Source: an uncultured Candidatus Actinomarina sp.
Lineage (GTDB): Bacteria; Actinomycetota; Acidimicrobiia; Actinomarinales; Actinomarinaceae
DNA: 64,000 nt
Direction: 5' to 3'
Assembly (NCBI GenBank): GCA_902580215.1
Contig: CACHJT010000002.1
Coordinates: 72,425 to 136,424 of the forward strand
Below, piece by piece: positions 1,732 to 36,607 of this stretch; the stretch's first letter is position 1; each line of letters starts with the position of its first letter. The translations under genes and the position numbers were made by a program. Under the pieces are notes generated by a model, which saw only the letters and a program-made list of their open reading frames with translations, searched no databases and had not been told where the DNA came from.

Positions 1732-2523
1732 ATGAAAAAAATGGATGTTCACATAGTTGGGTTAGGGAATCTAGGATCTGCTTTTCTCAATGGTTTAAAA
1801 GATTTAGATGTAAACATGTTCTTATATGAGGAATCAAACGAAGCAAGACAGTCCATACAAAAGAATTATTCAATAAGCCCTGAAGAATCTTTAACTGCTA
1901 TTAGGGGTGGTGTTTTACTTTTATGTATCAAGCCTCAGAACATAAATGAATTTTTTAATACTCACAAAGATAAAATTGAAAAAGATGTTTTAATTTGTAC
2001 TCCAGTTGCAGGTCTAGAAATTAAAACAATTGAAAAAAATCTTGATAATAACATTTTAAGAATTATGCCTAATTTACTTATACAAGATAAAACTGGTTTT
2101 ATTCCATATGCTTCAAATTATCAAGGAGATTATCTCAACTTCATCAAAAATATTTTAGAAAATTTAGGAACTGTAAAAGAAGTTGAAGAATCTATGTTCC
2201 CTATTGTTACTGCATTGTCAGGCAGCGGTCCTGCCTGGTTTTATGAGCTTTCAAATCAGCTTGTGAACTCTGGGACTGAGTTGGGATTAAGCTTAGAAGA
2301 TTCGGAGTTAATTATTAAAGAGCTTGTAAAAGCACTTCCATCACTTGTAGACGAAGATGAAACATTTAAAGATTTAGTAAATAAAGTAAAGTCACCTGGT
2401 GGAACTACCGAAGCAGGTCTCAATTCGCTTAATGATGATTCATTTGATACAATTATTCTCGATGCAATTCGCAAAGCAACTCAAAGATCTACTGAGATAG
2501 CAAAAGAATTAACAAATGAATAA
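1732..2523 (+). CDS. proC: Pyrroline-5-carboxylate reductase
   Basis: N-terminal Rossmann motif VGLGNLGSAF, a C-terminal KSPGGTTEAGL signature, and typical length (263 aa). Confidence 0.85.
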   Translation: MKKMDVHIVGLGNLGSAFLNGLKDLDVNMFLYEESNEARQSIQKNYSISPEESLTAIRGGVLLLCIKPQNINEFFNTHKDKIEKDVLICTPVAGLEIKTIEKNLDNNILRIMPNLLIQDKTGFIPYASNYQGDYLNFIKNILENLGTVKEVEESMFPIVTALSGSGPAWFYELSNQLVNSGTELGLSLEDSELIIKELVKALPSLVDEDETFKDLVNKVKSPGGTTEAGLNSLNDDSFDTIILDAIRKATQRSTEIAKELTNE

Positions 2524-4675
2524 GTTTTTAAATAAATACAAAGCTAATGATTATGTACTACTATTCTCCGCCGGTGCAGCAGTAGGTACACTTTTTTTAT
2601 GGGCAGCAAGCTATATATTTCCCGAAGGAGAAATAGTTGGAGGTAGAAGAGTATTTGAGAATATTCCTAAGGTCCTCCAATATATATTTTATGTTTTAAG
2701 TGCAACAACAATATATATTTCTGGATACTTATTTTCCCTTCGGGTAAAGAACTGGACTAGAGGCAAAGAAGAAAAAAGAGATGTGAAACTATCTCAAAGG
2801 ATATTAAAACTTTTTGATGGTTTGACTATGAGAACTGTTCTTAGGTTTAAAGCTGCTGGTCTTATGCACTCCTTGATTTACATTGGCTTTCTCGGTTTGT
2901 TTGCAGGCACTGTAACTTTAGAGATTCATCATCTTATGCCTCCTTCGTTGAAATTTTTACAAGGCACAACATATATTGTTTATTCTTTCACACTAGAACT
3001 GGCAACTATAGCTTATCTAACTGGTCTTTTTTGGGCATTAGCTAGGCGCTTAATTGGCACCGAGTACAGGATAAAAACTAAAACTACAATCGATGATTAT
3101 TTAACTCTTTCTCTGTTGATTTTTATTGGAATATCAGGGATAACTACTGAAGCAGGAAGAATCGCATTAGAAAATTTTCCAGATTATGAAAAATGGTCCT
3201 TTATTGGCTATGCCGTTGGTGATTTTTTAAACCTCTCGAATCCTGAACTTTTTCATAGGATTTCGTGGGTACTTCATGTTGTTTCTTTTTTTGTATTTTT
3301 AATAGCAATTCCATTGTCCAAACTTAGGCATATATTTACATCACCAATAAATATGTTTATGTCACCTAAGGAAAGACCTAAAGGTGCAATGAAATTTATT
3401 GGCAATCTTTTAGAGGCAGATGATATTGACAATGTAGGTACAGAAATTATTGATCACTTTACCTGGAAACAGTTAATGGATCTTGATGCCTGTACTGTTT
3501 GCGGTAGGTGTACATCTGTATGTCCTGCAAATCAAACTGGTAAGTCTTTAGACCCTAGGGAAATTATATTAAAAGTAGGGCAAGTGATGTCTGAATCTGG
3601 TCAACCTGCAGTACCTGCTACTGTTTCAACACCAGGTCCTTTACGTGTAAATTCTGACAATGTTTTTGAAAGAATTACTTCCGAAGAACTCTGGGCTTGT
3701 ACTTCTTGTAAAGCCTGCGATGAGATTTGCCCTGTGAATATTGAAATTTTAGACAAAATACTTGATATGAGAAGACATCTTGCATTGATGGAATCAGATT
3801 TTCCTGCAGAGTTAGGTAAGGCATATGTTGCGATGGAGAACTCCTCCAATCCATGGGGGGCTTCTCAAAACGACAGACTGAAATGGACTGAAGATCTAGA
3901 TTTTGATGTTCCTGTAATAGACGAAACTAACCATGAAGAGTATGACTATCTGTATTGGATCGGTTGTGCAGGAGCTTTTGATGATAGGAATGTACCTGTT
4001 ACAAAAGCTGTAGCAACGTTATTAAAAAGAGCAGGAGTTTCTTTTGCTGTTCTTGGACCAAAAGAAGTTTGTACAGGAGACTCTGCGAGAAGAACGGGTA
4101 ATGAATTTGTTTTTCAACAACTAGCTATTCAAAATATTGAGAATATGAATAATCTAAAAGTAGAAAAAATTATTACTCAGTGCCCACACTGTTTCAATAC
4201 AATAGCAAACGAGTATCCGCAACTTGGAGGAAACTATCAAGTAATTCATCACAGTCAACTTTTGACGGAGTTAGTTCAGTCAGGAAGAATTGAAGTAGGT
4301 ACTAGTGATAAGCCTTACAAAATCACCTATCATGATTCATGTTATTTGGGTAGACATAATGACATCTATACCGCACCACGAGAGATTGTAGGTTCTATAG
4401 GTGGTATTGAGATTAGAGAAATGAAAAGACAGGGAACTCAAAGCTTTTGTTGCGGTGCCGGTGGCGGAAGAATGTGGATGGAGGAATCTACGGGTAAAAA
4501 AGTAAACATTGAGCGTTCACAAGAAGCCATTGATACCGGGGCTGACGAAGTTGCTGTTGCGTGTCCTTTTTGCTACATAATGATGGACGATGGTGTGAAA
4601 GAGTTGGGCTATGGAGACAATGTAAAAGTACGAGATGTGTCTCTTATATTGTTAGATAATCTGAAAAAGGATTAG
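2516..4675 (+). CDS. Membrane-anchored Fe-S oxidoreductase: N-terminal polytopic domain, 2x[4Fe-4S] ferredoxin motifs and two CCG cysteine-rich domains (HdrD/GlpC-like, Rv0338c-like)
   Basis: About 270 aa of hydrophobic helices, then CTVCGRCTSVCP and CTSCKACDEICP. These are followed by the CCG-type motifs WIGCAGAFD, CPHCF, SFCCGAGGG and ACPFC. Confidence 0.8.
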   Translation: MNKFLNKYKANDYVLLFSAGAAVGTLFLWAASYIFPEGEIVGGRRVFENIPKVLQYIFYVLSATTIYISGYLFSLRVKNWTRGKEEKRDVKLSQRILKLFDGLTMRTVLRFKAAGLMHSLIYIGFLGLFAGTVTLEIHHLMPPSLKFLQGTTYIVYSFTLELATIAYLTGLFWALARRLIGTEYRIKTKTTIDDYLTLSLLIFIGISGITTEAGRIALENFPDYEKWSFIGYAVGDFLNLSNPELFHRISWVLHVVSFFVFLIAIPLSKLRHIFTSPINMFMSPKERPKGAMKFIGNLLEADDIDNVGTEIIDHFTWKQLMDLDACTVCGRCTSVCPANQTGKSLDPREIILKVGQVMSESGQPAVPATVSTPGPLRVNSDNVFERITSEELWACTSCKACDEICPVNIEILDKILDMRRHLALMESDFPAELGKAYVAMENSSNPWGASQNDRLKWTEDLDFDVPVIDETNHEEYDYLYWIGCAGAFDDRNVPVTKAVATLLKRAGVSFAVLGPKEVCTGDSARRTGNEFVFQQLAIQNIENMNNLKVEKIITQCPHCFNTIANEYPQLGGNYQVIHHSQLLTELVQSGRIEVGTSDKPYKITYHDSCYLGRHNDIYTAPREIVGSIGGIEIREMKRQGTQSFCCGAGGGRMWMEESTGKKVNIERSQEAIDTGADEVAVACPFCYIMMDDGVKELGYGDNVKVRDVSLILLDNLKKD

Positions 4676-5020: not shown

Positions 5021-5638
5021 ATGAGTGAAAGACAAATATTCTCAAAAATTTTACGTCTTGATAAATATATTTATAATGAGCTTCTTAATCTAAATGGTGC
5101 ACTGCAAAAGGGAATTGCTATTTATTTAGCAGTCGCAACCTTAACTACTTTGAGTGCTTTCAGATTTTTTAATGGCATGATTGAATTCCTTGAAAGCAAC
5201 CTTGTTCTTTTTCAAGGTGAAATGTCAGAAGAAGAGTTTCAGATGTTTAGGTCTTTGATCGATGAATTATCTGTTATTTTTGTTCAGCAAGATTCGACTA
5301 CATCAGTATTGATTTCATCAATCGTATCAACCAGTGTTACGACAGTAGTTGGGCTTGTAATATGTTTTTTGATTCTTAAATTTCTGTTTAGAAAAGATCC
5401 AAAACCAATTGATATACTTATAATTTCATTCTTTTCAAGTGTTCCAGGACTACTTGTATTTCCTGCGTTGTTTATACAAAACCCACTTCTACAAGCATTA
5501 TTAGTTTTTATAACTTCGATCTACGCACTAATTGCATTTGGCTCTGGCATAAAGCAGGTTTACTTATTAAGAAATATTGAAGTTGTCCTTGTTGTCATTG
5601 CACTAACATTCGGTGGTTCAATTTTAGGATCAGGATAG
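5021..5638 (+). CDS. Hypothetical polytopic membrane protein (possibly Yip1-like)
   Basis: A 205-aa ORF with a soluble N-terminal ~30 aa followed by about 5 hydrophobic segments. The Yip1 resemblance rests on architecture only. Confidence 0.45.
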   Translation: MSERQIFSKILRLDKYIYNELLNLNGALQKGIAIYLAVATLTTLSAFRFFNGMIEFLESNLVLFQGEMSEEEFQMFRSLIDELSVIFVQQDSTTSVLISSIVSTSVTTVVGLVICFLILKFLFRKDPKPIDILIISFFSSVPGLLVFPALFIQNPLLQALLVFITSIYALIAFGSGIKQVYLLRNIEVVLVVIALTFGGSILGSG

Positions 5639-9278: not shown

Positions 9279-10307
9279 GTGAGACTCACAGAGTATTCTC
9301 ATGGCTCAGGTTGAGCATGTAAACTCTCCCAAGGAGAGCTTGCTCAGGTTCTGAAGCAATCAAAACAAAATAATTTAAACAATTCTGAAGTTTTAGTGGG
9401 GTTAGAAAATCCAGATGATGGCGCGGTTATTGATCTAGGCAATAAAACTAAAATTGTACAAACAGTTGATTTTTTTACGCCTATATTAGATAACCCCTAC
9501 GATTGGGGTAGAGTTGCTGCAACAAATGCCTTATCTGATATATATGCCATGGGTGGTACACCTATTTCATCTTTACAGTTAGTAAGTTGGCCAAGAGAAG
9601 ATATAGGTTTTGATGTCTTATCAGATGTTATTAGGGGAGGCTCAGATGTAATGAAGTCTGCCAATTGCAATATTGTTGGAGGGCACAGTATTGATGACAA
9701 AGAACCAAAATATGGTTTTGCCGTAACAGGTATCGTTAATGAAAAAATCTATACAAAAACGAATATTAAAAATGGAGATAAACTTTTTCTAACCAAGCCT
9801 CTCGGTTCTGGAATTATTGCAACCGCAATAAAAAAAGGAGTTGCCGATGAAGAAGCAATAAATCAGGTAACAAATGTAATGACAACCCTAAATGATGCAG
9901 GCCTTGAAGTCGCAAAGCACCTCAATGCAAATGCAATTACAGACGTTACTGGTTTTGGACTTCTTGGCCACCTGAGTGAAATGTTGATTGATGAAAAATT
10001 ATCAGCAAATTTGATATTCGATAAAGTTCCAATCATTGAGTTTGCAAAAAATTATTTTCATAGTGGCATTTATCCATCAGGAAGCCAAAGAAATTTAGAC
10101 TCAGTAAAAGACATTATCTCATTCGAGGATCAAGACGAGGCACTTTTATTAGCAGATGCTCAAACCAGTGGAGGATTATTAATTTCTGCACCTGCTGAAA
10201 CAGATATAGATTTGATAGAAATTGAAAAAATATATGGAGTTTTTCTAAAAGAAATTGGAAATATAACTGATAGATATAATCAAAAAATAAATATTATTAG
10301 TAGTTGA
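9279..10307 (+). CDS. selD: Selenophosphate synthetase SelD with an in-frame UGA (selenocysteine) codon at 9312-9314
   Basis: The track ORF (9396..10307) carries SelD motifs (DFFTPILDNPYDWGRVAATNALSDIYAMGG, GGHSIDD, DVTGFGLLGHLSEM). The same frame extends back to GTG 9279, which lies 5 nt after AAGGAGG. It reads VRLTEYSHGSG-TGA-ACKLSQGELAQVL, matching the E. coli loop RLTQYSHGAGCGCK with TGA at the catalytic Cys17 position. Confidence 0.85.
9312..9346 (+). promoter_or_regulatory. Putative bacterial SECIS hairpin starting at the selD UGA
   Basis: Lower stem 9312-9317 (TGAGCA) pairs with 9341-9346 (TGCTCA). Upper stem 9324-9329 (CTCTCC) pairs with 9333-9338 (GGAGAG). The apical loop is 9330-9332 (CAA), and there is an asymmetric internal loop. 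Confidence 0.45.
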
Positions 10308-20981: not shown

Positions 20982-22097
20982 TTAGTGTTGGCTTGCAGCC
21001 ACACTAGCAATTATAACAATAAGAGTCAACACTCCAGCAGACGCAATAAGAACTTCACTTCTTGTAATTTTTATCTTAGGAGCTGCACTCATTACACTTG
21101 CAAAAAGTAAAATTGCAGCTGAAATAATTAATGCAAATAGTGGTGCATATTCATGAAAGTTTAAAAATACTTGCGCAATAGCAACCGCAATTAGACCACC
21201 AACAACTATTGATCCCAATGGAATCACGATTGAGCCAACAATTCTCTGGCGAATTTTTTGAGCTTCAGAATCCTCAAAATCTTCAAGCCCTTTAGGAACA
21301 CCAAGTAGCATTGTCAAGGTAGAGATCGCAGCTTGAACAAAAGTTGATAAGATTACAACCCTCCAAAAAGCGCTACCAACTGTGATTAAATTTATTACCG
21401 GATCATCAGGAAGAACAGGTTCTATTGTTTGCCCAACGCTATTAATTATAAAAAATGCTGTTGAGGAACCTAAGACTAAACCTAGCCCCCCACCAGTAAA
21501 TACAGATTCTCTATCAGAAGTAAGTATGCCAAAACCATCAAAATTTGAATCCAAAAACTTTTTAACATTCAATGAATTAAGTATTCCAAGAAAGCTAGTA
21601 GATAGTGAGATGATTATAACAAATGACACAGCATCATATTCTGCTATTAACTTCTGTGTTTCAGCTTCGAGTATTAGTCCATCGTAGAGATAAGAGCTTG
21701 AAAGAAGCCCCTGGACAAATCCAGCTATAACTCCAAAACCCAATCCAAATTTTAAAGACCTTAATAATTTCTGACTAATACTTACAGGAGGTGGCAAGTC
21801 TTCTTTTATTAAAACTGCTGTTTGAATTTGTTCAACAAGATTTTCAGGTTCTTCTACTTCAACGGGTTCATCTACTTGCTCTTCTACTGGAGTAGAAGTG
21901 TCTTCGACTACCACCTGTGATTCTGATACTGTTTCATTAGCTGGCGCTGCTTGGATAGCCTCACCACCAGTCCAGCTGTTTAGAACATCATTTACAGAAA
22001 CCCCAGATGCTTCAGCCCTTGCTTGTGCAGACCGTGATACCAACATTTGAGGAATACCACTGCTTGAGCTAATTTGATCTACTAATTTTTCATCCAT
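20982..22097 (-). CDS. Hypothetical membrane protein: soluble N-terminal ~50 aa, acidic linker, ~7 TM segments
   Basis: A 371-aa ORF lying between the ctaG-like gene and aceA on the same strand, with spacers of 18 nt and 4 nt. No family recognised. Confidence 0.5.
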   Translation of the reverse strand: MDEKLVDQISSSSGIPQMLVSRSAQARAEASGVSVNDVLNSWTGGEAIQAAPANETVSESQVVVEDTSTPVEEQVDEPVEVEEPENLVEQIQTAVLIKEDLPPPVSISQKLLRSLKFGLGFGVIAGFVQGLLSSSYLYDGLILEAETQKLIAEYDAVSFVIIISLSTSFLGILNSLNVKKFLDSNFDGFGILTSDRESVFTGGGLGLVLGSSTAFFIINSVGQTIEPVLPDDPVINLITVGSAFWRVVILSTFVQAAISTLTMLLGVPKGLEDFEDSEAQKIRQRIVGSIVIPLGSIVVGGLIAVAIAQVFLNFHEYAPLFALIISAAILLFASVMSAAPKIKITRSEVLIASAGVLTLIVIIASVAASQH

Positions 22098-30288: not shown

Positions 30289-32802
30289 TTACAGTTCAAA
30301 TTTAGTATTAATAAACTCATCCTTTATTGTGTTTTTAAATTTTATATTTGCATCCAATCGCTCAATATTTTGCCTTGTTATTTTTTCGGCTGATGGAAGT
30401 GGATTTTCATTAACGAAAGATTTAATTTCTTCACTCAGTAACTCGTCATATATTGATGGCAGTGAATCAAGTATTCGGGATGCTGTCCATCCAGGCATTA
30501 ATTCGAGTAAGGCACTCCAATTATTTTTTATTTCTATAAATCCATTAGAAGCATTCTTACTATTTGAAAGTAAAGTAGCGATTATATAAGGGGCATCCGC
30601 TCCTCTGATTGTTTGATCCAAAATTGCTCCAATTACATTTTTTGGAGTATCAGGGTCACTTAATGTACCGATGACTCCTCTGTATCTTGCTTCTATTTGG
30701 GGTGATGATGAATTTTTAAACTTTTCAATATATATTTCTGAGGAACACTCTTGATTCATTCCAGCAATTGATAACACTAAATTAAAATAATTACCATCAG
30801 CGTATTCTTCATATTCATTTGAAATAAATTGATTTGCAAAAAATTCAATAAATTTTGAATCTTCAGTTATCTTTGCATAAGTTCCACAAAGCAAGGATCT
30901 TAACTGGGACTCTTCTTGATCAAATTTATCTTGATAATCTTTTCCTAGAGTTTCTATTAACGGATAGCTAAAATCTTTAACATAATTTTTAAAACTATCA
31001 TTTTCTCCAATTTTGGCAAAGGTAGAAAAGATGCTACTAATTAATGACCAAATATTTACATCTTTTTCGCCTGTGTATAAGTTTAAAAGTTTGATAAAAA
31101 GTGATAGCTTCAACTCACCTATTCGCAATGCCATCCAAGAATCTTCTAAAATCCTATATTTTTCGTTTAAGTCAAGTTTTTCAAAATTTAATAATATTTC
31201 TTCATAGATATCTTCACTATATGATGAGTGAAAAAATGACCAACCACCATTATTTATAAAAGGAATTTCACCATTATTTTCAATCGTAATTGAATCAGAA
31301 TCCAAAATTAACTTATTTACTTTATTGTTATCCAAGTATCTAATATTCAACGGCACGCTCCAAAGAGAGCTGTCGGTGCTTCCATCAATCAAATATTTCT
31401 TTTGAGATATTTTAAAACTGGAACCTTCTTTTTTGATATTTACAATTGGATACCCTTCTTGCTGTATCCACGTAGGAAGAATTTCACTAAGGTTATAAGA
31501 ACTTGCACTTGTAAGTTCGTTCCAAAGGTCAGAAGAATGTGTATTTTTATACTCATATTTTTTAAGATATTTTCTCACACCATCTTTAAAAGTTTCTTCA
31601 CCTATAAATGTTTCAAACATCCTGAGTACGGTAGAACCTTTTTGATAGGTTAATACATCAAACATTTCTTCTGCTTCTTCTGGAGTTTTTACTTCGAACT
31701 CAACTGGCCTTGAAGACTTTAATGAGTCAACTCCAAACCCTCTTGACCTGTCTAGGTTCATCTGATTCCATAATTTAAACTCGGGGTATGTTGCTTCAGA
31801 AGCTATAACTTCCATTAAACTTGCAAATGCTTCATTTAGCCAAATGCCATCCCACCAGTTCATGGTTACCAAGTCCCCGAACCACATATGAGCTAATTCG
31901 TGAGCAATTACTTCAACAGACCTTGATAATTCTGCTCTTGTTGCTTTTTCTACATCAATAAGCAGTAGCGTTTCTCGAAAAGTTACAGCCCCAACATTTT
32001 CCATTGCACCCATAGCAAAATCAGGTATTGCTATAAGATCTAATTTTGATCCTGGATAATTTATCCCGTAATAATCCTCAAAGAAATCCAGAATTTTTAT
32101 TGCAGCTGTGCCAGCAAAATTAGTTTGGTCAGAAAAACCTGGCCTATGCACTATTCCTATGTCAGTTGTTTTTGAAGAACCTATCTTAGAAACTTCTAAT
32201 TTACCAACAACAAAAGCTACTAGGTATGTTGACATTCTCATAGAGTCAACAAACTTAGTTGTAGTTCTATTATTTTCAGTTGATTCATTCAACACTTTTT
32301 CATTACTAATTCTTATCAAATCACTGTCTGTGGTTAAAGCTATGGAAAATATCGCTTTGAATTCTGGCTCATCCCAACAAGGAAAAGCCATTCTCGCTGC
32401 AGTTGGTTCGAACTGAGTAGTCGCAATCCAAACGTCTTTATTTTCTGAATCTTTAAAGCTACTCCTGTAAAACCCTCTTAATTCATCAACTATTGTGGCT
32501 TTGAAATCAAGATAAAGTTGCCAATCTCCTTGGGTAATTTTATCTTCAAAAATAAGTGAAACTCTCTCTTCTTCAGGTAAATAATTAATTGAGGCCTCAA
32601 TATGTTCACCTGAGTCATTTTCTATAAAAGCATTTTCTATATCAATTCCTAATGAGTGAAACTGTAATTCTTTTGTTTCATCAACTATTTCCAAGAAAAC
32701 AACTTCTTTGCCCGTGTAGCTAAATTCATCTAAGTTAATATCTAGATTGATTTCGTATCTGTGAGGTACTGCTATTTTTGGTAGTCTAATGTTTTCATTC
32801 AT
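30289..32802 (-). CDS. pepN: Aminopeptidase N (M1 family)
   Basis: GAMEN exopeptidase motif (GAMENVG) and zinc site HELAHMWFGD...WLNEAFA, in an 837-aa protein. Confidence 0.9.
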   Translation of the reverse strand: MNENIRLPKIAVPHRYEINLDINLDEFSYTGKEVVFLEIVDETKELQFHSLGIDIENAFIENDSGEHIEASINYLPEEERVSLIFEDKITQGDWQLYLDFKATIVDELRGFYRSSFKDSENKDVWIATTQFEPTAARMAFPCWDEPEFKAIFSIALTTDSDLIRISNEKVLNESTENNRTTTKFVDSMRMSTYLVAFVVGKLEVSKIGSSKTTDIGIVHRPGFSDQTNFAGTAAIKILDFFEDYYGINYPGSKLDLIAIPDFAMGAMENVGAVTFRETLLLIDVEKATRAELSRSVEVIAHELAHMWFGDLVTMNWWDGIWLNEAFASLMEVIASEATYPEFKLWNQMNLDRSRGFGVDSLKSSRPVEFEVKTPEEAEEMFDVLTYQKGSTVLRMFETFIGEETFKDGVRKYLKKYEYKNTHSSDLWNELTSASSYNLSEILPTWIQQEGYPIVNIKKEGSSFKISQKKYLIDGSTDSSLWSVPLNIRYLDNNKVNKLILDSDSITIENNGEIPFINNGGWSFFHSSYSEDIYEEILLNFEKLDLNEKYRILEDSWMALRIGELKLSLFIKLLNLYTGEKDVNIWSLISSIFSTFAKIGENDSFKNYVKDFSYPLIETLGKDYQDKFDQEESQLRSLLCGTYAKITEDSKFIEFFANQFISNEYEEYADGNYFNLVLSIAGMNQECSSEIYIEKFKNSSSPQIEARYRGVIGTLSDPDTPKNVIGAILDQTIRGADAPYIIATLLSNSKNASNGFIEIKNNWSALLELMPGWTASRILDSLPSIYDELLSEEIKSFVNENPLPSAEKITRQNIERLDANIKFKNTIKDEFINTKFEL

Positions 32803-32827: not shown

Positions 32828-34180
32828 TCAATCCCAGTCCAAGTGGATAAATTCGTCAGAATTTTTAAATTGCACCTGATGTGCACCGAAATAATCTCTT
32901 TGAGCTTGAATTAATGCAGAGGGATTAAATGTACTTGATGTTCCTACAAACCAGTTGTATGACGAATTTATAACAGGAATTGAGATACCGCTATCAATGC
33001 ACGATTTAATTACTTCTTTTGCATCACTGAGATTATTCTGTAATAAATCTTGAACAGAAGGGGTTGTAGTAATAGGGTTCAGCAGCTTTGCATTACCCAA
33101 TTCATTTAGAAGATCAGATCTAATAATGCAACCAGCTGACCAATTCTGCAAGACTTCTTTCAAATCTATATCTAATTGCTCTTTGTTACTCACATGCTGG
33201 ATAAAGAGCAAACCTTGAATCATTGTTGCTAGTCTTGCAAAATATATTGCGTTGTTTAAAGATTCTGAAGAAATATCTATCAACTGTCCATCAATATTTT
33301 TTGACCATAAGTTTTCATAGTTACTCTCCACCCTTGCATTGAATGCTTCAAAGACACTAGGTAATGGAAAACCATAGTTAAGTGATGTCTCAACTGTTAG
33401 TTTGCCTGTCCCTTTATGATTTGCAGTAGATTGTATTTGATCAAGTAAATACCCTGAATCGTTTTTCTTTAATAAAATTTCTGAAGTTATTTCAATTAAG
33501 TATGAAGATCTATTTTGTGTGGAAAATTTCTTGAAAAACTCACTTATCTCAATATTGGTATAGTTTGCTTTTTTTAAAATATGGTAAGCCTCAGTAATAA
33601 TTTGCATTTCAGCATACTCAATACCGTTGTGAAGCATTTTAATAAAATGGCCAGTTCCATAACCTTTATAAAACCCAATACTTAGGGAGTTTTCATAACT
33701 CGCAGCTATTGAAGATAAAGAATCTTTTAATTCATTATTAATTGATTTCTCTGAACCAATCATTAAGGCCGGGCCATTTCTTGCACCCTCTTCTCCTCCC
33801 GAAACACCCATTCCTATAAAATCTATCTCTTTCTTAGCACACAGAGCACCCAGTCTGCTGCTGTCAAGATAGTATGCATTACCCCCGTCAATCAATATGT
33901 CATTTGGTTCGAGATAGTTAATTACTTTTTTTGCCATATCGAATGTTGGTTTACCAGATGGAATTAGCATAAGAATTTTTCTCGGTTTTGGTAAAGATTC
34001 TATAAAATTCTCGAGGTCAGTAGATCCAGAAATGTTCCCGTTAGAGTCTTTCTCTATAAGAGAATTAATCTTATCTTCAGATTGATTAAATACGTGAACA
34101 GACGTGCCCTTTTCAGAAAAATTAAGAGCAATATTGCTACCCATTACCCCAATACCAATTAAACCAATAGATTTAGTCAT
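32828..34180 (-). CDS. gnd: 6-phosphogluconate dehydrogenase (decarboxylating)
   Basis: GLIGIGVMGSNIALN Rossmann start, IDGGNAYY and GMGVSGGEEGARNGPALM motifs, in a 450-aa protein. Confidence 0.9.
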   Translation of the reverse strand: MTKSIGLIGIGVMGSNIALNFSEKGTSVHVFNQSEDKINSLIEKDSNGNISGSTDLENFIESLPKPRKILMLIPSGKPTFDMAKKVINYLEPNDILIDGGNAYYLDSSRLGALCAKKEIDFIGMGVSGGEEGARNGPALMIGSEKSINNELKDSLSSIAASYENSLSIGFYKGYGTGHFIKMLHNGIEYAEMQIITEAYHILKKANYTNIEISEFFKKFSTQNRSSYLIEITSEILLKKNDSGYLLDQIQSTANHKGTGKLTVETSLNYGFPLPSVFEAFNARVESNYENLWSKNIDGQLIDISSESLNNAIYFARLATMIQGLLFIQHVSNKEQLDIDLKEVLQNWSAGCIIRSDLLNELGNAKLLNPITTTPSVQDLLQNNLSDAKEVIKSCIDSGISIPVINSSYNWFVGTSSTFNPSALIQAQRDYFGAHQVQFKNSDEFIHLDWD

Positions 34181-35496
34181 GATAAAAGTTTAACAACATC
34201 TTTTTGAAGCAGATTTTCTAGGTAATAATTTCTAATTTCTACAGAAACTTCTAACCCCTCTTCAATATTTTTAACACTTACGATGGAAGAATACTTGTGT
34301 AGTTGATCCAAGTCCTTAGGCGATATTAAAAGCGAAACTTCATTTAGATCACCAAAGACATTTGTTGTAATCTCAGAAATTAATTTTTTAATATTTGTCC
34401 CTTTTGTTGATGATACAAATATTGCATCTTGATATTTTTCCGTTAAATAATTTAAAGACGCCTTGTCAATTCTATCTATTTTATTAAAAACCAATATTTC
34501 AGGCACATCTGCTTCAATCTGGTCTAGTATTTCATGCACTGTATTTATGTGCATTTCGGGTATTGCAGATGCTGCGTCAACAACATGAATTAATAAATTT
34601 GCTTCTTTAACAACTGTAAGTGTTGATTTAAAAGATTCGATCAATGTTGTTGGAAGATTTTGAATAAACCCAACTGTGTCCGAGAGTATGATGTGCTCAT
34701 TTATTCCATCAATTTTTAACTCTCTTTGTAAAGAATCAACAGTTGCAAATAACTCATTAGCTACATATGTTTTCGAAGACGTAATTTTTTCTAGCATGGT
34801 AGATTTTCCTGCATTCGTATAACCAACAATTGAAACAAGAGGTGTATTATTTTTCTTTCTAAAGCTAGATTGCACTTCTCTTTGTTTACTAACTTTTTTA
34901 ATTTCCCTTTTTAATTTATTAATTCTGTTGTCAATTAATCTATTGTCTGTTTCAAGCTTTGTTTCACCAGGTCCTCTTGTTCCTATACCACCGCCCTGCT
35001 GATTCAAAGTTTTACCTAAGCCAGCTAAACGTGGTTTTAAGTAAATTGATAAAGCTAATTCAACTTGTAAGCTGGCTTCCTTTGACTGAGCATGAAGTGC
35101 AAATATGTCAAGGATAAGACCAGTTCTGTCTACCACATCACACTTGAATAAAGCTCTCAATTCTTTTTGTTGGTTTGGAGTTAATTCGCAATCAAATAAA
35201 ACGACATCAATATCATTTGCATCTGAGATATCTACCAATTCTTTTATAGAACCTTTACCAATAAAAGTTTTAGGATCAATTTTTTCTACCCTTTTAGTCT
35301 GGATTATTGTTGGACTTGATCCAGCAGTTTTTACTAAATTAACAAGCTCTTTAAGAGACTCTTCCTTGTCAGCTCTTATTTCATTTTTTAAGACTATTCC
35401 AATTAATAATGCTTTTTGAGTAGTGACAAAGATATCTCTATCAGATACTGTTAGAAGCCTTCTGTCTGATTGGTTTGGATTATTTCTCTGATTCAA
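34177..35496 (-). CDS. hflX: GTPase HflX
   Basis: HflX N-terminal domain plus G motifs (GYTNAGKST, DTVGFI, NKID). The TTG start directly abuts the upstream stop. Confidence 0.9.
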   Translation of the reverse strand: MNQRNNPNQSDRRLLTVSDRDIFVTTQKALLIGIVLKNEIRADKEESLKELVNLVKTAGSSPTIIQTKRVEKIDPKTFIGKGSIKELVDISDANDIDVVLFDCELTPNQQKELRALFKCDVVDRTGLILDIFALHAQSKEASLQVELALSIYLKPRLAGLGKTLNQQGGGIGTRGPGETKLETDNRLIDNRINKLKREIKKVSKQREVQSSFRKKNNTPLVSIVGYTNAGKSTMLEKITSSKTYVANELFATVDSLQRELKIDGINEHIILSDTVGFIQNLPTTLIESFKSTLTVVKEANLLIHVVDAASAIPEMHINTVHEILDQIEADVPEILVFNKIDRIDKASLNYLTEKYQDAIFVSSTKGTNIKKLISEITTNVFGDLNEVSLLISPKDLDQLHKYSSIVSVKNIEEGLEVSVEIRNYYLENLLQKDVVKLLS

Positions 35497-35826
35497 TTAT
35501 TTCATTATAGGTAATTGGCCATTTTCAGAAGATTTAGAAAGCTCTTCTTCAGCAATAATTTGAGATTCTCTAACTGCTAAAACTACTTTTCCAGTTGGAG
35601 GCCAGATAAATTTCCATGCACCACTAGCTACAGCCCAGAACTGCTGTCCTGTATCAACATCAATAAGAGGAAGTGCTTCTGAAGTTTTTTCACTGCCAGC
35701 TGGTACAAGAAGTCCTGACTTAGTAATGGTCTCTTCTTTTAAGTGACCAACTCTCCAACCTGGAGAAACCTTGAATCCAGCAGGTGCTTCTTGCACCTCA
35801 TCTAATAAGCTTTTTTCTTCTGCCAT
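35497..35826 (-). CDS. Hypothetical 109-aa protein (weak GroES-like resemblance)
   Basis: A clean ORF with an ATG start that fills the gap between tRNA-Sec and hflX. The segments ETITKSGLLVPAGSEKTSE and VLAVRESQIIAEEE faintly recall the GroES mobile loop and C-terminus. No confident family. Confidence 0.5.
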   Translation of the reverse strand: MAEEKSLLDEVQEAPAGFKVSPGWRVGHLKEETITKSGLLVPAGSEKTSEALPLIDVDTGQQFWAVASGAWKFIWPPTGKVVLAVRESQIIAEEELSKSSENGQLPIMK

Positions 35827-35861
35827 TTTTCTATATTAAACATGTATATCTTATAAAGTAG

Positions 35862-35953
35862 CGGAGGTGGACAGGAATCGAACCTGCCAAAGACTTTTAC
35901 ACCTTTCAACAGTTTTGAAGACTGTGGAGCCCACCAGGCGCTCATTCACCTCC
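35862..35953 (-). tRNA. selC: tRNA-Sec (anticodon UCA) with a long variable arm, 92 nt, no encoded CCA
   Basis: The reverse complement reads GGAGGTGAATGAGCGCCTGGTGGGCTCCACAGTCTTCAAAACTGTTGAAAGGTGTAAAAGTCTTTGGCAGGTTCGATTCCTGTCCACCTCCG. The acceptor GGAGGTG pairs with CACCTCC. The anticodon stem ACAGT/ACTGT encloses the loop CTTCAAA, giving anticodon UCA. The extra arm is ~21 nt, the T arm is CAGG-TTCGATT-CCTG, and the discriminator is G. Confidence 0.85.
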
Positions 35954-36004
35954 GTACTTAAGACTAGTTATATAAAAAAAATTATATTGAATAGAATTAA
36001 AGTA

Positions 36005-36607
36005 ATGAATAATTTTCAAATAGAATTTAAAAGACTTAAAGCTGATAGAGGCTTAAGTAATAAACAGATCGCTTCTTTTACAGGGGTAAAAGTAAAAGAT
36101 GTTAAGCAATGGGAAGCTGGAACAAGTTTTCCTACGGATAAAAAAATTATTAATGCTCTTGAAGGATTGTTAGGTACTGAAATAACACAGACACTTGATG
36201 GGTTCTCAACAGAACAACTAAAAGAAGTAGGTTCATTATTAACTGAAGAAAGTCTCTTCTCAATAAAAAATGATGATGTGCAAATTAAACAAACTAGAAT
36301 TGATAAACTTCGAAATACCTTCCAAAGAAAAGAATCAACACTAAATGATTTTGATTATGAATCAGTTGAGGTTTCTGAGGTAAAAGAAGAAACTTTAGAA
36401 GAATATCTTACAAAACCAGTACAAACTACTAATCTTCTTGAATTTTCCGACGAAGAGCCATACATATATGATCAAAAACAAATTGGATTTTATTTCACTC
36501 GAAATCTCAAAACAACTGCTTTGCTTCTGGTGCTTTGTATTGTTATTTATAATTCATTCTCCTTATTTTGGGATTCACTTAGAACATTTTTAGATAATTT
36601 ATTGTGA
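36005..36607 (+). CDS. Membrane-anchored XRE-type helix-turn-helix protein (RodZ/anti-sigma-like topology)
   Basis: From ATG 36005 the protein reads MNNFQIEFKRLKADRGLSNKQIASFTGVKVKDVKQWEAG (HTH). It continues with an acidic linker and a single C-terminal TM segment (TTALLLVLCIVIYNSFSLFW). The track's longer N-terminus (35867) overlaps the tRNA and was discarded. Confidence 0.6.
   Translation: MNNFQIEFKRLKADRGLSNKQIASFTGVKVKDVKQWEAGTSFPTDKKIINALEGLLGTEITQTLDGFSTEQLKEVGSLLTEESLFSIKNDDVQIKQTRIDKLRNTFQRKESTLNDFDYESVEVSEVKEETLEEYLTKPVQTTNLLEFSDEEPYIYDQKQIGFYFTRNLKTTALLLVLCIVIYNSFSLFWDSLRTFLDNLL

Follow-up and report, generated by a model that had tools for sequence, protein, structure and literature searches.

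The described systems closest to the gene analysed here are the selC genes, which encode the tRNA for selenocysteine (tRNA-Sec), of Escherichia coli, of mycobacteria and of the genus Actinomarina itself. The gene in question lies at 35862..35953 on the minus strand of a 64-kb stretch of DNA from an uncultured Candidatus Actinomarina sp. (contig CACHJT010000002.1), hereafter referred to as the window. It is very probably a functional selC, the product of which folds with a 7-bp acceptor and a 6-bp T stem (7/6), which has a promoter of its own and which owes its tight spacing from the downstream genes to a deletion. tRNA-Sec requires a 13-bp acceptor/T domain (PMC7609411, PMC5330540), and the textbook bacterial fold divides it into an 8-bp acceptor and a 5-bp T stem (8/5; PMC7609411, PMC5330540).

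Like E. coli selC, the Actinomarina gene combines a CUUCAAA anticodon loop, the discriminator base G73, a D stem of 6 bp that carries a 4-nt loop, a long extra arm and 13 stacked acceptor/T pairs. Stacked positions 9 and 10 are occupied in both by G.U and C-G, the pairs that define SelB binding and EF-Tu rejection in E. coli (G49.U65 and C50-G64; PMC9976931). In contrast, E. coli tRNA-Sec has a Watson-Crick eighth pair (C7-G66) and a 5-bp T stem, whereas the eighth stacked pair in Actinomarina is most likely G66-C84. Unlike that of E. coli, the Actinomarina D stem contains a bulged G, and the top pair of the anticodon stem is a C.U mismatch.

Mycobacterial tRNA-Sec, described in 2026 (PMC13449736), likewise divides its 13 bp into 7 in the acceptor and 6 in the T stem and has a GGAGGCG-like 5' end. 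As in the window, an mRNA follows mycobacterial selC at a distance of a few tens of nucleotides; in mycobacteria the two are co-transcribed, and the downstream gene often lacks a Shine-Dalgarno sequence (PMC13449736). The downstream gene is selA in mycobacteria, as part of a selC-selA-selB cluster with selD alongside, whereas an unrelated small-protein gene and hflX follow selC in Actinomarina, in which the sel genes are scattered. Moreover, the CCA end is mostly encoded in mycobacterial selC but not in the window gene. The finding of a 7/6 layout both in Actinomarina and other Acidimicrobiia and in mycobacteria suggests that the layout is a trait of Actinobacteria and not peculiar to mycobacteria. 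Non-standard partitions also occur in 12-bp tRNA-Sec variants and allo-tRNAs (8/4, 9/3 and 7/5), some of which are found in Actinobacteria, for instance in Rubrobacter (PMC5389517, PMC5330540). These variants have 12 stacked pairs, whereas the Actinomarina tRNA has 13 in the 7/6 fold, or 12 plus one mismatch in the 8/5 fold.

The same gene has been reported in the same genus by Nielsen & Lui (“Actinomarina, resolved”, bioRxiv 10.64898/2026.04.03.716425), who place selA and selD elsewhere on the chromosome. Their preprint covers neither the tRNA fold nor a bacterial selenocysteine insertion sequence (SECIS) element, its Rfam searches having failed, nor does it deal with promoters, the adjacency of selC and hflX or the deletion history. 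The observation of selC in the window is correct but ordinary, as the use of selenocysteine (Sec) by Actinomarina and the 7/6 variant were both reported in 2026, and the point that a free-living marine bacterium ranking among the smallest and most abundant keeps the full cost of Sec decoding has already been made by the preprint. The increments of the present analysis, namely the 7/6 layout in Acidimicrobiia, the collinearity of the block carrying selC, a SECIS candidate in selD and the adjacency read as a deletion scar, are modest and leave the understanding of Sec decoding unchanged.

Structure of the tRNA-Sec gene

The sole tRNA gene detected by ARAGORN in the window is SeC(tca), at 35861-35953 on the minus strand. 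The Rfam model RF01852 matches 35953..35863 over its full length (1-91/91), at 75.4 bits (gathering score 47; E = 1.2e-13), and the minimum free energy (MFE) fold and covariation point to the same gene. These results bear out a preliminary description, made from the letters of the window, of a 92-nt minus-strand tRNA-Sec with a UCA anticodon. A pseudogene score, or a class II tRNA in a different anticodon register, had been named there as contrary outcomes; the predictors call tRNA-Sec. Conservation was assessed in Actinomarinales loci collected by an HflX scan with one genome per GTDB species, which yielded 50 species loci reaching the region upstream of hflX. The scan also places the window in Candidatus Actinomarina (OCS155, Actinomarinales), its DNA being essentially that of the single-cell genome AG-453-L02. 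The anticodon loop CUUCAAA, in which UCA reads UGA, is invariant across these 50 species.

Every testable defining feature of bacterial tRNA-Sec is present in the 92-nt gene, with the exception of the acceptor/T partition, which is most likely 7/6 and not 8/5. The discriminator is G73, at 35862, and is followed by CUA; CCA is hence not encoded, as had been noted before. G73 and a long variable arm are the identity elements by which seryl-tRNA synthetase (SerRS) recognizes tRNA-Sec (PMC7609411, PMC9976931), and both are found here, the extra arm being 5-6 bp long. The D stem, GAGC(g)CC / GGGCUC, consists of six pairs and one bulged G and carries the 4-nt loop UGGU. It is unchanged from genomes with 33% GC to genomes with 71% GC, and a 6-bp stem with a 4-nt loop is the feature recognized by SelA. 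The anticodon stem has 5 bp plus the C.U mismatch at its top.

The CCA of tRNA-Sec is encoded (…CCTCCGCCA) in seven Actinomarinales species (L035, L036, L039, L041, L044, L045 and L048) and in the Acidimicrobiia relative L208, but not in the clade of the window or in the remaining species. Judging from this distribution, the encoded CCA appears to have been lost within Actinomarinales.

The acceptor consists of seven Watson-Crick pairs (1-7 with 85-91), beyond which A8 faces C84. The preliminary description had counted the seven pairs correctly and had placed an A-C pair at the eighth position. In the MFE fold, however, C84 pairs with G66, the base just 5' of a five-pair T stem, with a pair probability of 0.94. 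The energies of the 7/6, 8/5 and 9/4 registers are -33.3, -31.2 and -27.0 kcal/mol, respectively. The eighth “pair” is thus most likely not a pair, and the best fold of 35862..35953 has a 7-bp acceptor, a 6-bp D stem, a 5-bp anticodon stem, an extra arm of 5-6 bp and a 6-bp T stem. The 9/4 fold, which is the register of the Rfam model (A9-U83), was rejected, as it is 6.3 kcal/mol worse than 7/6 and the probability of the A9-U83 pair is 0.001.

Covariation was analysed in 16 distinct Actinomarinales selC sequences, all 92 nt long, and in two further sequences from Acidimicrobiia. Positions 8 and 84 are A.C in 16/16 Actinomarinales sequences and U.C in one Acidimicrobiia relative, and form a standard pair in none. 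A8 or U8 is unpaired with C84 in 13/13 sequences, and G66 and C84 remain fixed while position 8 drifts, which is the behaviour expected under the 7/6 fold. In this fold, the 7 + 6 = 13 stacked pairs are all paired in 16/16 and 13/13 sequences, whereas the 8/5 register gives 12 pairs plus an A.C mismatch. By pairing C84 with G66, the 7/6 arrangement keeps the 13-bp acceptor/T helix, together with its G.U and C-G pairs.

Among the 16 Actinomarinales sequences, compensatory changes occur at four pairs, distributed over the T stem, the anticodon stem and the extra arm, in which pair 53-60 covaries; the overall covariation score exceeds those of all 500 shuffles and of every slid control. When the two Acidimicrobiia genes, which come from genomes with 65-71% GC, are added, double changes are found at ten pairs, including the acceptor pair 6:86 (U-A to C-G). 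Pairing is maintained in 96% of the alignment cells, compared with 41-58% in slid controls.

The canonical 8/5 fold would require that A8 and C84 form a tolerated or selected non-Watson-Crick pair (A.C or A+.C) and that G66 serves as a single-stranded linker. This is the textbook arrangement, it keeps a one-nucleotide linker ahead of the T stem, as in class II tRNAs, and the Rfam alignment accepts the A8/C84 mismatch. Moreover, the eighth acceptor pair is G.A or G.G in 10/11 cleanly parsed 8/5 tRNA-Sec genes adjoining selA on unrelated metagenome contigs (L105, L108, L121, L135, L164, L169, L170, L172, L183 and L194), a small, Firmicutes-rich sample, so that a mismatch would be unremarkable even in the 8/5 register. 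The 7/6 fold also has weak points of its own: it leaves the extra arm and the T stem without a linker, which may be sterically demanding, and G66 and C84 are invariant, so covariation gives no direct evidence for that pair. However, the 8/5 fold is 2.1 kcal/mol worse and conflicts with the high probability of the G66-C84 pair. The change from A to U at position 8 in a relative gains no pair, while G66 and C84 stay fixed, and mycobacterial tRNA-Sec, which has the same GGAGGCG 5' sequence as the two Acidimicrobiia relatives, is described as 7/6 (PMC13449736). On these grounds we regard the 8/5 fold as unlikely and retain 7/6. The tRNA-Sec gene of L129 has an A.C eighth position and a possible G:C alternative as in Actinomarina, but one stacked pair fewer.

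selD and the selenocysteine machinery

In the established pathway, SerRS would charge tRNA-Sec with serine by virtue of G73 and the long extra arm, SelA would turn the serine into selenocysteine using selenophosphate made by SelD, and SelB would bring tRNA-Sec to UGA codons located ahead of a SECIS hairpin. One such codon is located in selD, 26 kb from selC. The selD gene (9279..10307, plus strand) encodes the Sec form of selenophosphate synthetase, a protein of 342 aa, and starts at a GTG preceded by an AAGGAGG Shine-Dalgarno sequence. Its end at 10307 is 25.6 kb away from selC, in line with the distance of about 26 kb given earlier. Read from the GTG at 9279, the frame contains a UGA at 9312-9314 (motif GSG-U-ACK), which is the active-site position at which SelD has either Cys or Sec. 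The open reading frame (ORF) listed for this gene by ORF finders, 9396-10307, covers the C-terminal 303 residues only. AIRS and AIRS_C domains are present in SelD homologues. The preprint also describes selD as a selenoprotein gene with an MRLT... prefix and a length of 342-346 aa, with which the 342 aa of the window protein agree.

A SECIS-like hairpin (9312..9346, plus strand) extends from the UGA onward and consists of a lower stem, UGAGCA...UGCUCA, and an upper stem, CUCUCC/GGAGAG (-19.8 kcal/mol, z = -3.5). TGA is kept at this site in all SelD homologues examined, down to 66% identity. Four further sequence variants keep the hairpin; in these, its synonymous sites are frozen, one C-to-U change is wobble-compatible, and the upper stem is shorter in the most distant clade. 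The in-frame UGA and the conserved hairpin, which the preliminary description missed, constitute the strongest evidence in the window that Sec decoding is in use. In many public SelD records (P0121-P0146), Sec is given as W and the protein continues beyond its stop codon (…NWW, …SSWWLKH), and other gene calls are shortened. The W-bearing records evidently stem from gene calling with TGA as a Trp codon, which hides the selenoprotein.

TGA is the stop codon of 12/57 window genes. As TGA also serves as an ordinary stop, recoding of UGA must depend on context, which implies a SelB. A window scan for frames interrupted by one or two TGA codons returned only artefacts of adjacent genes, with a filter that missed selD and would miss short selenoproteins. 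No SelA or SelB domain was found in the window ORFs covered by a Pfam scan or by a Pfam record of an identical strain, which include every ORF of at least 340 aa, in agreement with the earlier statement that the 64 kb carry neither selA nor selB. Neither gene is present in about 8.4 kb beyond the right end of the window (MFS, metK, a PLP enzyme, a hydrolase, a helicase, pyruvate kinase and TauE), nor in the 1.7 kb that the selD locus of a relative adds at the left end, marked by the protein ProC (a 66-aa gene, dnaK and grpE).

Metagenomes were scanned for selA with the pyridoxal phosphate (PLP)-lysine motif of SelA, GDKLLGGPQAG, which was back-translated with A/T-biased third positions in the Gly, Pro and Ala codons. 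The scan yielded at least 80 SelA loci from other low-GC bacteria; among the matches listed, none has the Actinomarina tetranucleotide signature (best r 0.947, compared with 0.99 for controls), a result that is not evidence of absence. It limits the case for a functional selC that our own searches located neither selA nor selB, the motif scan having missed this lineage, and that the selB reported in the preprint falls below the KofamScan threshold (bioRxiv 10.64898/2026.04.03.716425). According to the same preprint, however, selC, selA and selD are present in 84/84 complete Actinomarina genomes, along with a divergent selB, and each genome encodes about five selenoproteins, Sec-form SelD included (bioRxiv 10.64898/2026.04.03.716425). 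The lack of Sec machinery in complete genomes, which had been named as grounds for abandoning the assignment, is not what the preprint reports.

These data bear on whether the gene could be something other than a working tRNA-Sec, such as a pseudogene, an allo-tRNA or UCA tRNA-Cys type, or a general UGA suppressor. Irregularities of the cloverleaf, namely the A8/C84 mismatch, the G that bulges from the D stem and the C.U mismatch topping the anticodon stem, would fit such a view, as would our failure to find selA and selB. However, neither the 50 species nor the relatives with 65-71% GC depart from these irregularities, while the other stems covary, which indicates purifying selection on selC. 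tRNA-Cys-like types carry U73, whereas the discriminator is G73 here. The acceptor/T branch has 13 bp, compared with 12 bp in allo-tRNAs (PMC5389517). Moreover, TGA serves as a normal stop in 21% of the window genes, the UGA and the SECIS hairpin of selD are kept across the order, and the preprint reports selA, selB and selenoproteins. A non-functional or differently employed tRNA is thus highly improbable.

Conservation and neighbourhood of selC

The tRNA-Sec gene is located just upstream of hflX in 50/50 Actinomarinales species loci. The surrounding 11-kb block, PmbA-TldD-sigma-CtaA-HTH / selC / HflX-Gnd-PepN-LLM, is collinear in 50/50, as far as the contigs reach. selC travels with its block and is not individually mobile. 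This runs counter to the suggestion made in the preprint that selC was relocated by recombination targeted to tRNA sites.

In the window, the gene next to selC encodes a small protein of 109 aa. Three Acidimicrobiia relatives feature a homologue of this protein directly upstream of hflX and gnd downstream, and pepN too where the locus extends far enough. selC lies upstream of the small-protein/hflX pair by 4 kb in L208 and by 2.8 kb in L209, and a malic-enzyme gene and a 120-aa gene are found in between in one relative. In L209, selC is again divergent from a 200-aa helix-turn-helix (HTH) gene (2445-3047, 71% GC). An ancestral block of about 2.8 kb, comprising the malic-enzyme gene and the 120-aa gene, was very probably deleted in Actinomarinales, and the tight spacing of selC and the operon is, on this comparison of gene orders, a deletion scar of genome streamlining. 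In the clade with 68-73% HflX identity (clade B), the small-protein gene has also been lost from this locus, and selC is 47-53 nt away from hflX.

The alternative that the 109-aa ORF was inserted at the tRNA site is rejected, because the small-protein/hflX pair is ancestral in Acidimicrobiia and clade B lost the gene. The 109-aa family is accordingly the ancestral upstream partner of hflX in this class. The ORF (35497..35826, minus strand) is intact in 25/25 clade-A species, with a near-invariant core, and an identical protein is found on thousands of marine metagenome contigs, the length of one of which is 1.078 Mb. Its 118 homologues are mostly hypothetical proteins of Acidimicrobiia, 95-103 aa in length. 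The AlphaFold (AF2) model, which has a predicted local distance difference test score (pLDDT) of 67, features six beta strands, and the top 26 fold matches in the PDB are all Cpn10/GroES (probability up to 1.0, TM 0.34-0.55). No Pfam match was found even at E <= 10, and a profile search against PDB sequences gave no meaningful match. An identity as GroES was rejected, since sequence profiles lend it no support and only the fold is GroES-like. The protein is predicted to be GroES-like in fold without being GroES, and may act as a partner of the ribosome-rescue GTPase HflX.

The hflX gene (34177..35496, minus strand) encodes a ribosome-associated GTPase with the Pfam domains GTP-bdg_N, GTP-bdg_M and MMR_HSR1. 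Its TTG start abuts the stop codon of the 109-aa ORF directly, and the gene for 6-phosphogluconate dehydrogenase (gnd) follows. On the other side of selC, a divergent gene (36005..36607, plus strand) encodes a 200-aa protein with a weak XRE-type HTH (weak HTH_31 and HTH_3 matches). The HTH proteins of the window and of L209 are 32% identical over the HTH, and the gene is a conserved neighbour of selC. Contigs of the same species and of an identical strain call the 200-aa protein from the ATG at 36005, and the plus-strand ORF starting at 35867 is hence spurious at its N-terminus, as had been suspected.

Elsewhere in the window, a 371-aa ORF (20982-22097, minus strand) has no significant Pfam match and overlaps the listed start of isocitrate lyase by 29 nt. 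A 205-aa ORF (5021-5638, plus strand) also has no significant Pfam match, the weak match to Yip1 having an E value of 0.016.

Transcription of selC and the downstream genes

The 51 nt that separate the HTH gene from selC rank among the most conserved non-coding stretches of these loci and are inferred to contain two divergent promoters. All of the 50/50 loci have the pattern TA[TC][AG][TC]AA[CT]TA[GC]T[CG]T in the 30 nt ahead of selC, and its dominant variants share the same register. In the proposed selC promoter, a -10-like TATAAC box (35967..35972, minus strand; TACAAT in clade B) precedes the mature 5' end by 13 nt. On the plus strand, a putative -10-like TAGAAT box of the HTH gene (35992..35997) lies 7 nt before the ATG, a leaderless layout, within a conserved TAATT[C/G]TATTC block of the 51-nt region.

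The spacer between the 3' end of the tRNA and the ATG of the 109-aa ORF (35826) is exactly 35 nt long. It contains no terminator-like site on the minus strand and no significant structure (z = -0.73), which matches the distance and the lack of a hairpin reported in the preliminary description. A -10-like TAATAT box (35833..35838, minus strand) precedes the ATG by 6 nt, with no Shine-Dalgarno sequence, and is proposed to be the promoter of a leaderless mRNA. Every clade-A spacer variant features TANNAT exactly 6 nt before the ATG and lacks a Shine-Dalgarno sequence. Leaderless mRNAs are commonly used in Actinobacteria. In the window, a leaderless layout (TANNAT/TANNNT 6-7 nt before the start) is found at 10/22 operon-head genes, compared with 12.8% expected (p = 1.8e-4), and only about 8/57 genes have a Shine-Dalgarno-like motif. 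These frequencies suggest that leaderless mRNAs are widespread in Actinomarina. The conserved position of the TANNAT box and the enrichment of its layout among operon-head genes make it probable that the 109-aa ORF has a promoter of its own. Examples of the layout are found at 35833-35838 and 35992-35997, and upstream of each of 18557, 30289-32802, 12410 and 26822.

Taken in order, selC would be transcribed from its own conserved promoter, with the -10 box at 35967..35972, and the leader of about 6 nt would be cut off by RNase P. The 3' end would be cut endonucleolytically and CCA would then be added, as it is not encoded. Since no terminator follows selC, some read-through into the 109-aa ORF, hflX and gnd is likely. 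This string of genes would also start independently as a leaderless mRNA from the -10 box located 6 nt before the ATG. The co-transcription of selC and mRNA envisaged in the preliminary description thus stands in part: the spacer is free of terminator and structure, but the conserved TANNAT box before the 109-aa ATG points to an additional start.

A stricter version of this idea is that selC, the 109-aa ORF, hflX and gnd form an obligatory single transcript from the selC promoter, and that excision of the tRNA by RNase P and a 3' endonuclease generates the 5' end of the mRNA. The unstructured 35-nt spacer, which has no terminator, is compatible with it, and the hflX string invariably follows selC directly, only 47-53 nt separating selC from hflX in clade B. 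A precedent is provided by mycobacteria, in which co-transcription of selC with selA bridges spacers of 11-75 nt (PMC13449736). Clades B2 and B3 lack a conserved -10 box before hflX, which may depend on the selC promoter there, a point that also weakens the case for independent starts. The latter case has another weakness, in that promoters, processing and read-through are deduced from sequence conservation, and -10-like hexamers arise easily in very AT-rich DNA. In contrast, an obligatory single transcript leaves unexplained why TANNAT lies exactly 6 nt before a start codon lacking a Shine-Dalgarno sequence throughout clade A, in a layout enriched at operon heads. Moreover, in other Acidimicrobiia the small-protein/hflX pair has no tRNA upstream and is divergent from the malic-enzyme gene, which implies that the promoter of the pair is separate and ancestral. 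Obligatory co-transcription is accordingly a serious possibility, although we lean towards separate promoters with some read-through.

More tentatively, and with somewhat less probability still, streamlining may have fused selC to the hflX unit. The hflX mRNA would then have tRNA-Sec as its 5' leader, at any rate in the clade without the small gene, and RNase P and 3' processing would make the message. In the same proposal, the 7/6 fold would be Actinomycetota-wide, shared by Mycobacteria and Acidimicrobiia, and would have co-evolved with a divergent SelB. If true, the fusion would couple the supply of a UGA-recoding tRNA to a ribosome-rescue GTPase.

The 5' acceptor strand of selC, GGAGGUGA (35946-35953, minus strand), matches the Shine-Dalgarno sequence perfectly. 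The opposite 3' strand, CCACCUCC (35863-35870, minus strand), resembles the anti-Shine-Dalgarno end of 16S rRNA. In mycobacteria, it has been speculated that the Shine-Dalgarno-like acceptor strand may contact ribosomes during co-transcription (PMC13449736).

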